In this document: piece by piece, positions 16,221 through 22,586 of the stretch
How positions within the stretch are numbered: the first letter of the stretch is position 1
Layout of the letters: each line of letters opens with the position of its first letter
Source: Candidatus Helarchaeota archaeon
GTDB taxonomy: Archaea; Asgardarchaeota; Lokiarchaeia; Helarchaeales; RDOG01
Assembly: GCA_019058315.1 (NCBI GenBank)
Contig: JAHPZH010000001.1
Location: 817,208-881,207, forward strand
Reading direction: 5' to 3'
Length of the DNA stretch: 64,000 nt
Translations under genes and position numbers: made by a program
The notes under the pieces: generated by a model
What the model was told of the DNA's origin: nothing
Database searches by the model: none
The model's input: only the letters and a program-made list of their open reading frames with translations

Positions 16221-17684
16221 ATGGTGTTTAAAGTCAACAATGAAATACAAGAAAATAATTATTCTTTAGCACAAAGAGAGATTAATTTAATTGTAAAAAA
16301 ATTTAATAAAAAATTTAAAATTAATTTTAGAGAATTATTTGAAAACGAAATTACAAATCAAAGGAAAATTCAATTAATTAAAAATTTTTATGAAACTTTA
16401 TTAATAAAATTTAAAGATTTAGAGAATTCTGAAGCTTTTAATAATTTTTTAAAAGAATTTGAATCAATTTTAGTTGACGAATCTAAATTAATTGACAAAT
16501 TCTTAATAATTTGTGAAAAATTTGGAATTCAATTCAAATTACCAAAAAAAATTGATGATATTTTTCATATTTATCGTATAATATCGAATCCCAATACCTC
16601 TACTAAATATTATTTTATACTCAAATGTTTTTATGAAAATTCGAATAGATATTTAACAAAAAAACATGTTGAAATCTTATTATCTGAAATTCTAGGGGAT
16701 TCAATAATTGATTTAGATGTTTACTTTAGAAATTTAAAATCTGTGAAATTAATAAAAAAACAAAGTAAGAGATATCATTTAACAGAAATCGGAGTTACTT
16801 TTTTTGATTCAATTTTAAAATTAAAAGAAGAAATGAAAATACCTTTAATAGATAAATTAGATCGGGTTATGCTATTACAAGCATTATATGATGAAAAAGG
16901 AATTCCTATACAAAGTCATCATCATATTCAACAAATAAGTTCTCTTATTAAAGAATTTATTGATGAAATTATAGAACACGATAATGTCCTTGAATGGTCG
17001 TCATACCTTGATAAGTTAGATGATATTATTTTAGATCTAGAAACATTTGCCCAAAGATATAAAAATGATTTCGGGATTTATCAACAAATATTAAGAGAAA
17101 AATCAGAATTAGCAAGAAAACTTGCAATTTATCATGAAGTGGCTCAAGAATCACTTAATAAATACATTTCTTTAATTCATCAAGGATACGATCCAAAAAG
17201 AATGAAGTTAATCATTAATTTATTTAATAAAACTATATTCTCAGAATTATCAAATTGTTTATACAACAATATTTTAAATGCTAGATTACCTCAGAATGAA
17301 GATTTATGGATGGATATTTTAATCATTAATAAAAAAGATTTTGAAGATATTAAGGATAATAGAATAAAAGAATCAATTATGACTGAAAAATTAAAAGATT
17401 CTAAGGCAATTGAATTATTAGATTTTTATTATCCTAGTTATAAATTGATGGGAGAAAAATTAATTTCGAAAATTAATAAATCGCCAATCAAATTATCAGA
17501 ATTAACCAAAAGGTGGGATTGTAATTGGAAAATTTTAGCAGATTTCATTAATAATTTACCTTCAATTATAACCGAATTTCCTATCATTGCAATTGCTCAG
17601 AAGAAAATATTTAATTTCAAAGAAGGTATTGCAAGAGAGGGTATATTTTATACTTTATTATCGGGTGAGAAGAATGATATTTGA
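16221..17684 (+). CDS. Putative kleisin-like subunit (MukF/MksF/JetA-type) with winged-helix domain
   Basis: WH-like segment YFILKCFYENSNRYLTKKHVEILL...YFRNLKSVKLIKKQSKRYHLTEIG followed by a helical region; size and first position in an operon with a kite and an SMC. The call rests mainly on context. Confidence 0.55.
   Translation: MVFKVNNEIQENNYSLAQREINLIVKKFNKKFKINFRELFENEITNQRKIQLIKNFYETLLIKFKDLENSEAFNNFLKEFESILVDESKLIDKFLIICEKFGIQFKLPKKIDDIFHIYRIISNPNTSTKYYFILKCFYENSNRYLTKKHVEILLSEILGDSIIDLDVYFRNLKSVKLIKKQSKRYHLTEIGVTFFDSILKLKEEMKIPLIDKLDRVMLLQALYDEKGIPIQSHHHIQQISSLIKEFIDEIIEHDNVLEWSSYLDKLDDIILDLETFAQRYKNDFGIYQQILREKSELARKLAIYHEVAQESLNKYISLIHQGYDPKRMKLIINLFNKTIFSELSNCLYNNILNARLPQNEDLWMDILIINKKDFEDIKDNRIKESIMTEKLKDSKAIELLDFYYPSYKLMGEKLISKINKSPIKLSELTKRWDCNWKILADFINNLPSIITEFPIIAIAQKKIFNFKEGIAREGIFYTLLSGEKNDI
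17663..17668 (+). promoter_or_regulatory. Shine-Dalgarno-like site (GGGTGA) for ATG 17674
   Basis: tcGGGTGAgaagaATG; ATG 17674 is in frame with the ORF-track call 17587..18252 and overlaps the upstream stop. Confidence 0.6.
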
Positions 17685-18252
17685 AATTAACGACGAATTC
17701 TTAGAAGATGTTCAACTATTAATCAATATTTTAATATTTAACGGAGGGAAAGGTATTAGTTTAGATGAAATTAAAAAGATTTTTGAAGAAAATTGTGATT
17801 CTATAATCAACGAAACTGATATCATTTTAAAGATGCTTCAGATAGAATTAAGAAATAATGAGAATAGACTTTTTATTGTTCCAAATAGAAAAATATATAC
17901 TCAATTAAATTTATATGGTATAACAAATAAATTATTATCTCTAGAAACTAAAGAGCGAGAAAAACTAACACGCTTTATTACATTGTACTTGGCTGAGGGG
18001 AAAAATGAACCAATATCTAAAGAAAAAGTTAAATTTGAATTAAATGAAAAGTTTGGACTTAATTTAGTTGAAAAAGATCTAAGAACTTTAGAAAGGTTTG
18101 GTTATATTAAATTAATTCATAATAAATTCGTTGATCTGGGATGGAGATTAAAAAATAGCAAAGAATTTAAAAGTTTTGAAACAAAATTTTTAGAATTTAT
18201 AAAGAGGTTTGAAAAAAAACAAGTGTTAAAGGATAAAATTCGAAATGACTAG
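17674..18252 (+). CDS. Putative kite subunit (tandem winged-helix; ScpB/Nse1/Nse3/JetB class)
   Basis: 192 aa from ATG 17674. WH-A: LLINILIFNGGKGISLDEIKKIF...SIINETDIILKMLQIELR. WH-B: LTRFITLYL...PISKEKV...DLRTLERFGYIKL...VDLGWRL. Overlaps both neighbours. Confidence 0.7.
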   Translation: MIFEINDEFLEDVQLLINILIFNGGKGISLDEIKKIFEENCDSIINETDIILKMLQIELRNNENRLFIVPNRKIYTQLNLYGITNKLLSLETKEREKLTRFITLYLAEGKNEPISKEKVKFELNEKFGLNLVEKDLRTLERFGYIKLIHNKFVDLGWRLKNSKEFKSFETKFLEFIKRFEKKQVLKDKIRND

Positions 18253-21106: not shown

Positions 21107-21218
21107 TTTAGATAAAATTAAGCTAAATAATAAGTGTAAATGTAATAATTATAAAGATTTAATCTATAAGATACTTCCTACTAGCAAAATTATAAATATA
21201 AATGATTATATATCGGAA

Positions 21219-22586
21219 ATGAAAATAAAAATTAAGGCAAAGGTATGTCCATTTTGCAGTAAAATAGTAAAAATATTAGATTATAAATTAATAAATGAAA
21301 TTGTTTATTTTCAGAAAATAATTGATACAAAATTTTTTGATTCATTAAATAAAAATTCTCAAAATTTTTTGATTAAACTTAATTCTAAAACATTTAGTCA
21401 TTTTAGGAATTTAAGAAAGGAATTTGGAATTAATTATTTAAATATTATAAAAGATTTGTGGACACACGGATTTATTAAAATTAAAAGAAATAAAATAAAT
21501 CCAAAATTAACTTCATCTATAGAATTGTCATCAAAATATCATGAGAAATTTATTAATAATTTAGAAAAGAAGGGTATGATAAATAAAACTATTTCATTGA
21601 CGCCAAATTGTAAGAATTTTTTTATAAACAGATTCATTCACCTTAAAAATAAAGAAATAAAGGAGAAACGATCTCAAATTATTTCTAAAATAAAATCAAA
21701 AATAAAATATTTGGAGGGGTTAGTTCATAAAAATCCTGATGAAAGAATTAAATGGATAAAACAAATTTTTGAAAATATTCAATTCAAATCTAATGTAACT
21801 ATTGGCATCCAGAGATGTGATTTGGATTTTTTAAATAAATTTGATATATTAGAATATAATTTAGATTTTTTAATATATGTTTGTAACGAAATTTCTAAAA
21901 AAGAATTAATTTCAATTAAAAATTTCAATAAAATATATAAGAAAAAAATTTCAAAAGAAAAATTTGAAAAGTTAAAAAAATCAATTAGAGATTTCAGAAA
22001 TATTCCAAGAATCATCTTAAAATTTGATTTAACATGTTATAACATTGTCAAAGAACCTATGAAGAATATCAGTAGAAGTATGAGACTTTTTAGAGAACTT
22101 CAAAATTTTTTAATTAATTTTTTAGAACCTTTGATTAATTCCTTTGTAATTAATAATTTGAAAAGCGAAGTTGACCTCGATAAAATTTGGTCTGAAAGAA
22201 TTCCAAGAAATGTTAGAAATAGTATAAAAGGAGCTTTTTATTCTACAAAAAAGAAATTGAAAGTTGAAAGAATTATTTATGAAGCTGAATTTCAGGATTT
22301 AATTGATAATTGTAAAATTGATGAACTATTAAATTATTCCTTATTTAATTCCTTGGGTTCAATTATTATTTATCCAGTCAATTGGGATTCAATTTTTAAA
22401 GACTATTTTACATTCTGTTCAACTTCCTCTGAGTTACAAGATAAATTCCTAAAGTTATTTTTTCTTAGAAATAAAGTTGCTCATAAAAAAGATATAAAAA
22501 TTGATATTTTAAAAATACTTAAAATAGAGAATATTGAATTATCAGAAATTTTAGAATTTTGTTTTAATTTATTAAGATCGTTATAA
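21219..22586 (+). CDS. Protein with C-terminal Swt1-like HEPN domain and N-terminal WH-like region
   Basis: FLEPLINSFVINNL...IWSERIPRNV...LLNYSLFNSLGSII...NWDSIFKDYF...LFFLRNKVAH: Swt1-HEPN pattern with intact R-x4-H. Confidence 0.75.
   Translation: MKIKIKAKVCPFCSKIVKILDYKLINEIVYFQKIIDTKFFDSLNKNSQNFLIKLNSKTFSHFRNLRKEFGINYLNIIKDLWTHGFIKIKRNKINPKLTSSIELSSKYHEKFINNLEKKGMINKTISLTPNCKNFFINRFIHLKNKEIKEKRSQIISKIKSKIKYLEGLVHKNPDERIKWIKQIFENIQFKSNVTIGIQRCDLDFLNKFDILEYNLDFLIYVCNEISKKELISIKNFNKIYKKKISKEKFEKLKKSIRDFRNIPRIILKFDLTCYNIVKEPMKNISRSMRLFRELQNFLINFLEPLINSFVINNLKSEVDLDKIWSERIPRNVRNSIKGAFYSTKKKLKVERIIYEAEFQDLIDNCKIDELLNYSLFNSLGSIIIYPVNWDSIFKDYFTFCSTSSELQDKFLKLFFLRNKVAHKKDIKIDILKILKIENIELSEILEFCFNLLRSL

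Follow-up and report, generated by a model that had tools for sequence, protein, structure and literature searches.

A HEPN protein in the effector position of an SMC operon

We analysed a stretch of 64,000 nucleotides (nt) from Candidatus Helarchaeota archaeon (assembly GCA_019058315.1, contig JAHPZH010000001.1, positions 817,208 to 881,207; called the window below, with its first letter as position 1), in which four co-oriented open reading frames (ORFs) on the plus strand occupy positions 16221-22586. These encode, in order, a candidate kleisin, a kite-like protein, an ATPase of the structural maintenance of chromosomes (SMC) type and a putative effector that ends in a Swt1-like HEPN domain. 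We lean slightly towards the view that they make up an accessory Asgard SMC system built like Wadjet/MksBEFG, with the effector nuclease replaced by a HEPN RNase. It should be kept in mind that the link to Wadjet rests on the architecture of the operon and on a number of leads, and not on the family to which the SMC belongs.

The ORF reading placed gene 1, of 487 amino acids (aa), at 16221..17684, gene 2 (192 aa, tandem winged helices) at 17674..18252, gene 3, the SMC (953 aa), at 18245..21106 and gene 4 (494 aa when counted from an ATT codon) at 21102..22586. The first three overlap by 11 and 8 nt, just as an earlier interpretation made from the letters alone (the sequence-only reading) had described for these four co-oriented genes. 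The same reading had taken the host for an Asgard archaeon, which was confirmed, and had called the block AT-rich, which agrees with a G+C content of 22.1% for the operon vs 30.5% for the host genome (5.79 Mb).

Conservation of the four-gene unit

An exhaustive search with the gene 4 family profile returned 31 proteins, and 13 homologue loci were examined, near-identical contigs being counted once. Gene 4 stands directly after the SMC gene in 12 of the 13, usually overlapping it, and on independent contigs the four-gene unit is kept at 30-45% protein identity. Besides the window, nine or more loci carry the genes as a unit. Genes 1 to 4 follow each other in order in L013, L028/L029, L006 and L001 (this last contig ends inside gene 4). 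The layout that had been proposed, namely a winged-helix/helical protein, a small winged-helix protein, an SMC and a HEPN protein, is conserved in the loci showing all four genes, and the linkage of gene 4 to SMC operons held in the neighbourhood survey; on this synteny we rejected the candidate explanation of gene 4 as an unrelated neighbour. SMC and gene 4 are also found together on the truncated contigs L026, L027, L030 and L060, where upstream fragments match the SMC C-terminus (E 5e-85, 3e-106 and 3e-5).

A second, more distant group comprises L033/L034 and L035/L036/L037, whose gene 4 relatives match the profile at E 1e-13 and 2e-12, together with L031/L032, where the relative of gene 4 (E 2.5e-27) comes after an SMC of 820 aa that is of the same lineage as that of the window. 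The order in L033 and L035 is a first protein of 500-540 aa, a second of 240 aa or split, an SMC of 1244-1261 aa and the gene 4 homologue last, and the best PADLOC match of this SMC is JetC1. Neither the first two genes nor the SMC of L033 and L035 showed sequence similarity to those of the window, so the same type of effector pairs with two SMC lineages. At these loci (L033 1790-8995, L035 4057-11128) the effector is shorter, 368-375 aa, and has no zinc ribbon, and the kite of L035 is split into 103 + 135 aa.

It may be added that in L006, from a Promethearchaeota metagenome-assembled genome (MAG; YT1_007), SMC and gene 4 both lack a canonical start. The SMC frame (9983-10017) has an in-frame TAA after five codons, MKKVR; the next canonical start is at 10175, and the homologous sequence runs on from 10001. 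The stop could be an assembly error, decay or readthrough.

The effector protein

The AlphaFold2 (AF2) model of gene 4, built from 17 sequences, has a predicted local distance difference test (pLDDT) score of 91.2 and a predicted template modelling (pTM) score of 0.74, and shows five parts. Residues 21-70 form a beta ribbon and 76-166 a winged helix; after a long helix come a second winged-helix domain of the Topo VI-A-like CAP type (209-318) and, at the C-terminus, a helical domain (325-493). The ribbon, a probable zinc ribbon with the pattern CxC...CxxC, lies at 21129..21311 on the plus strand, and its four cysteines are invariant in four sequences. The rest of the arm, i.e. the winged helix, the long helix and the CAP-like domain, spans 21327..22055 (plus strand), and the C-terminal domain, which takes a helical HEPN fold in the model, 22074..22580 (plus strand).

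The R-x4-H catalytic motif of this domain, RNKVAH, is at 22467..22484 (plus strand), in the last pair of long helices, with R456 and H461 in the 494-aa numbering. R and H are kept in all 12 full-length proteins read (the window protein, those of L013 and L006, P0009-P0015, P0017 and P0018), down to about 20-25% identity, which fits selection on catalysis; the polar residue after R is also kept in most of the homologues. RNase activity would be predicted for the domain by analogy. We take the Swt1-like HEPN family to be Pfam PF18731 and the C-terminal domain of yeast Swt1 to be PDB 4pqz. Distant tail matches of the gene 4 family profile belong to this HEPN_Swt1 family (13 of the 14 tested pass PF18731), and 4 of 17 members of the gene 4 family match it weakly, with a best E of 0.0018. 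The Swt1-type assignment of the gene 4 C-terminus is therefore transitive, by way of the tail matches. The claim of the sequence-only reading that the protein ends in a Swt1-like HEPN domain with an intact RNKVAH is borne out to this extent, as is its expectation of no Toprim: Pfam and PADLOC detected neither Toprim nor JetD_C, and the C-terminal domain folds as HEPN. Foldseek comparison of the whole model with the PDB gave nothing at E 0.001 or better, and sequence profiles of gene 1, gene 2 and gene 4 gave nothing meaningful against PDB chains. As a side observation, L062 (3064-3918), the one of the 13 loci in which gene 4 does not follow an SMC gene, encodes an arm-less relative of 284 aa that consists of the HEPN half and keeps R-x4-H.

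Start codon of the effector gene

Gene 4 had earlier been placed at 21219-22586 (455 aa). The frame and its stop codon stand, and the start is to be corrected. Read upstream, the frame stays open as far as an ATT at 21102 that overlaps the SMC stop codon, and starting here adds 39 residues that include the CxC, which together with the later CxxC makes up the four cysteines that are invariant in four aligned homologues. Because these upstream residues are conserved in homologues, we assign gene 4 from its sequence to 21102-22586, 494 aa, with an ATT start in place of the ATG at 21219. The conserved N-terminal part is likewise without ATG, GTG or TTG in L006 and L060, where it begins at an ATT at or just after the SMC stop, so that gene 4 lacks a canonical start in three independent loci (window 21102-21221, L006 12862-13270, L060 114-474); other loci have an ATG at the same place. 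A programmed frameshift fusing SMC and gene 4 was rejected, because the frame offset is not the same in all loci (+1 in the window, -1 in L006 and L001) and an ATG is present there in several of them. The ATT may be a weak start that acts with translational coupling to keep a toxic RNase low.

The SMC and its two partners

Gene 3 is, by its sequence, a true SMC ATPase, as had been claimed for the 953-aa product. It matches Pfam SMC_N with 60.4 bits (cut-off 40) over residues 5-917 and NCBIfam SMC_prok_A at 1.2e-18, and all four head motifs are intact when read in translation and alignment (Walker A AGNYKGKS, Q-loop LEQGK, signature SGGK and Walker B FYTLDE). The arms are short and the middle is hinge-like; residues ~388-520 resemble the first half of a hinge by eye, with no match to Pfam SMC_hinge. 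The best sequence matches in the PDB are heads of canonical Smc (1e-17), and against PADLOC JetC the match is E 9e-4 to 0.1 only, in coiled-coil parts.

The sequence-only reading had named genes 1 and 2 kleisin and kite, and the second of these identities came out the better. Gene 2 has 38-45% identity to the second genes of other loci, its position between gene 1 and the SMC is kept across loci, and a profile-profile comparison by hhalign with 18 Asgard ScpB-type kites gave a probability of 70% (E 4e-5) over 118 columns spanning both halves. ESM features added weak leads to a DUF4194 (JetB/MksE) cluster at 0.77 and to MAGE clusters; searches against Pfam families and PADLOC JetB gave no match. 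By profile match and position, gene 2 fits a kite.

Gene 1 begins with helices, continues through a winged helix (about residues 106-208) and a further helical stretch in the middle, and ends in a C-terminus that is poorly modelled. Its kleisin identity is likely but unproven and draws on leads: look-alikes found with a protein language model fall in MksB, MukF, JetA and DUF2397 clusters at 0.84-0.90, and the length and first position agree with kleisins of the MukF/JetA type, not with the short ScpA. When the profiles of genes 1 and 2 were compared by hhalign with the first genes of L033/L035, the JetA-like and JetB-like proteins of another Asgard genome (G163) and a ScpA-like 220-aa protein of the host, nothing significant came out.

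Likeness of the effector arm to JetD

JetD has its arm and CAP domain rigidly joined and its Toprim domain flexibly linked, and its aCAP binds the JetC head (bioRxiv 10.1101/2023.11.03.565488). In shape, gene 4 is best matched in the ESM Atlas by two clusters, of JetD and DUF2399, with 228 residues aligned over 28-325 and template modelling (TM) scores of 0.33-0.40. Also, the Asgard JetD of G163 starts with the short signature and the CxC that are found at the N-terminus of the gene 4 family, and it gives a weak, collinear profile match at E 1.6e-4. We treat the likeness of the N-terminal half of gene 4 to the JetD arm as a lead only; descent of the arm from JetD is plausible, and we would put it at about an even chance.

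Canonical JetD is rare in Asgard archaea (2 of 400 genomes, one of them G163). The locus in G163 (L059, 10129-16528 of G163:C142, minus strand) is a bona fide Asgard Wadjet with genes of 464, 220, 971 and 486 aa, of which the last two match PADLOC JetC3 (6e-22) and JetD1 (3.5e-17); its first two proteins matched no PADLOC model of JetA or JetB.

Distribution, neighbourhood and alternative explanations

All placeable loci are from Asgard archaea (Promethearchaeota). A scan of 400 Asgard genomes with the gene 1 profile picked out three, namely the host itself and two more; the SMC of the window was absent from 40 relatives, and the unit was not found in relatives of the same family or order. Word-indexed protein searches returned almost no relatives (one SMC homologue), a scan of one genome per species yielded one Promethearchaeota MAG with a relative, and a scan of metagenome contigs with the SMC alignment gave no confirmed relative. 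The unit is accessory, rare and horizontally scattered; its low G+C and the presence of two ordinary SMC complexes in the host agree with accessory status. The trio is not a core-genome locus, which would have spoken against the sequence-only reading.

Several results weigh against a Wadjet-like system with a HEPN RNase. The gene 3 family profile gave 58 and 50 bits for the ordinary SMCs of the host and 49 bits for an Asgard JetC3-like protein, and it gave no match to the JetC-like SMCs of L033/L035, the second group of operons. Since the profile scores ordinary host SMCs about as well as the Asgard JetC, gene 3 cannot be filed as JetC; in sequence the head comes closest to canonical Smc and is not JetC/MukB-like. 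Gene 1 gave no significant match to a kleisin family by any sequence method used (Pfam, PADLOC, NCBIfam, PDB chains), and its AF2 model, from five sequences, is poor (pLDDT 55), with weak and mixed Atlas matches. For gene 4, the window protein did not match PF18731 in a Pfam search at E up to 1, the Atlas TM-scores are below 0.5, and solved JetD chains were absent from its matches in three PDB searches, one of which, a second structural comparison, gave generic winged-helix matches only. Also, the relative in L062 stands solo, flanked by two peptidase U32 fragments and without an SMC in the vicinity, and L006 sits among housekeeping genes.

Some of these points would suit a third housekeeping-type SMC complex, i.e. 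a diverged paralogue of the condensin-like and SMC5/6-like operons, with gene 4 as a chromatin or RNA-processing subunit that, e.g., clears transcripts or R-loops ahead of the motor and is not an immune effector. The head closest to ordinary SMC, the match of gene 2 to a ScpB-type kite profile and the setting of L006 are all in its favour. Two or three SMC-kleisin-kite operons have been reported in Asgard archaea (bioRxiv 10.1101/2024.01.07.573240), and this number is matched by two other full SMC genes in the host, of 1175 and 1189 aa, each with a Pfam ScpB-type neighbour and in a gene order unlike that of the window operon, whose SMC is thus a third and rare one. At one of these loci (L025, 3944-11446; G000:C3:663943-671445) two proteins of ~180 aa and a 540-aa AAA+ ATPase precede the 1175-aa SMC, and a 220-aa protein and a ScpB-type kite follow it. 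The difference in gene order between the window operon and these two, however, argues against a housekeeping complex, as do the occurrence in 3 of 400 Asgard genomes with absence from same-family and same-order relatives, the low G+C relative to the genome, and the changing contexts, with transposases and with TIR, Schlafen and restriction-modification genes among the neighbours. We therefore think it unlikely that the operon is of the housekeeping kind.

The immediate neighbours in the window are WD40 and tetratricopeptide repeat (TPR) genes upstream and, downstream, a fusion of leucine-rich repeats (LRR) with a carbon-nitrogen hydrolase and an Eco57I-type N6 methylase, so that the earlier description of an LRR-enzyme fusion and restriction-modification neighbours was accurate. 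The fusion gene (22750-24717, minus strand) carries about 8 LRR repeats and converges on the 3′ end of the operon; its hydrolase domain scores 22.3 bits against Pfam CN_hydrolase, just below the cut-off of 23.2. Farther away, a 2585-aa ORF lies upstream of the island (4034-11791, minus strand) and three tandem paralogous 432-aa ORFs lie downstream of it (29322-33376, minus strand). Across loci the neighbours vary and are often defence-like or mobile-like, with the methylase and LRR-hydrolase in the window and a TIR gene, Schlafen-AlbA with a Tn7-like transposase, or DUF4062 elsewhere.

Such surroundings bring up a cargo or maintenance module of a mobile element, in which the SMC trio would organise or partition the element DNA or exclude competitors and the HEPN protein would be an addiction toxin. 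The patchy distribution and atypical composition agree with it, and so do the transposase genes: in L028/L029 gene 4 is followed directly by a Tn7-like TnsA/TnsB-TniB set, and a Mu-type transposase lies downstream in L031/L032, on a different branch of the family. The Tn7-like set is on the same strand as the effector gene and ~400-730 nt downstream of it (L028 10176-16002, L029 7746-13572, L031 4829-7471, L032 4045-6687), and consists of a TnsA-N + Mu-transposase C fusion of ~880 aa, a TniB ATPase and a 730-aa protein in two diverged family branches. The operon may be a preferred neighbour, a target or cargo of these transposons. Against the module stand the window, L006 and L013, where no transposase, integrase or replication gene lies beside the operon, and the lack of a conserved antitoxin-like partner across the unit. 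Transposon context as such cannot separate this explanation from a defence system, because defence systems are commonly transposon cargo or neighbours (PMC8649781). On the whole we consider a mobile-element module improbable, to about the same degree as the housekeeping complex.

Lastly, the HEPN domain might not be an RNase here, and some HEPN domains are indeed non-catalytic. That it serves as a dimerisation or nucleic-acid-binding module, the output being DNA compaction, silencing or recruitment of another nuclease, would agree with JetD dimerising through the very domain that HEPN replaces (bioRxiv 10.1101/2023.11.03.565488), but with R and H present in every full-length homologue read and the polar residue after R in most we regard it as quite improbable, more so than the two explanations above.

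Proposed mode of action

If the operon is a Wadjet-like system with a HEPN effector, the proteins in the kleisin and kite positions would join an SMC dimer that hydrolyses ATP to build a motor that entraps DNA. The arm of gene 4 (zinc ribbon, winged helix and CAP-like domain) would most likely dock on the SMC head, like the aCAP of JetD, and would carry a Swt1-type HEPN domain in place of the Toprim DNase. The motor would load on DNA and translocate, and on a foreign replicon motor units would stall or pair, as in Wadjet. HEPN RNases need to dimerise to form their composite R-x4-H site, and stalled or paired motors could bring two arm-tethered HEPN domains together. The RNase so activated might cut transcripts from the trapped DNA, or bulk cellular RNA, leading to dormancy or abortive infection. 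It is by analogy that we infer the docking, the trigger and a role in defence, and the DNA scanning, RNA cleavage and abortive infection put forward in the sequence-only reading likewise stay putative. The fuller picture, of a loop-extruding SMC sensor with an RNA-cleavage readout, in which HEPN has taken the place of Toprim on the same docking arm to give DNA-topology-triggered abortive infection or transcript clearing, and in which the arm has been adopted by two SMC lineages, is one that we hold possible and rate a little short of even.

Comparison with known systems

The operon resembles Wadjet/JetABCD (MksBEFG, EptABCD) in its order of a long winged-helix protein, a kite-sized protein, an SMC and an effector, in its overlapping frames and in being rare and patchy, and its gene sizes are near the 464-220-971-486 aa of the Asgard Wadjet in G163. 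The N-terminal arm of the effector, with its CAP-like domain, is also weakly like JetD models. It differs in having a Swt1-like HEPN domain where JetD has Toprim and an extra four-Cys ribbon on the arm, and in that the SMC is not JetC/MukB-like by sequence and genes 1 and 2 match no model of JetA or JetB. Full-text searches of the literature on Wadjet or JetD in connection with HEPN, and on Wadjet or kleisins in Asgard archaea, turned up no paper on a Wadjet-ordered SMC operon with HEPN for Toprim, and the sequence-only reading had known of no described system with this layout either.

Compared with the operons for SMC-ScpA-ScpB and for SMC5/6-related complexes in TACK and Asgard archaea (van Hooff et al., bioRxiv 10.1101/2024.01.07.573240; Yoshinaga and Inagaki 2021, PMC8665677), the window operon shares the canonical-type SMC head, the ScpB-type kite-like small subunit and the host phylum. 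Operons of that sort are retained widely, and two of them, in another gene order, are present in the host. The window operon is rare; its first protein is long where they have a short kleisin like ScpA, and its fourth gene encodes a HEPN protein. The vertical retention seen in archaeal SMC5/6-related operons is not shown by the window operon, with its 3 of 400 Asgard genomes.

Among HEPN proteins, the effector differs from the PF18731 family in scoring below the Pfam threshold, in the ~320-residue arm fused to the domain and in being tied to an SMC operon; the PF18731 members that we found have other partners (DndB, CHAT, an OB fold, or zinc ribbons alone). Unlike AbiF/Abi_2, Csm6/Csx1 and HEPN-MNT toxins, the operon comes without CARF, MNT or an antitoxin RNA partner, and its presumed sensor is an SMC motor.

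Implications

To our knowledge, the output of the SMC motor in every described Wadjet is DNA cleavage by the Toprim nuclease JetD. The sensors of CBASS and type III CRISPR systems are wired to different outputs, and a conserved RNase at the effector position would show that an SMC sensing module can take another output as well. The ATT start seen repeatedly in the effector gene provides a small and testable example of how expression of a probable toxin may be tuned. If the reading of the operon as a Wadjet-like system with a HEPN RNase is true, it would offer a natural system for asking which conformation of an SMC complex signals "foreign DNA", and would be one more observation on the diversification of SMC-based immunity close to the origin of eukaryotes.

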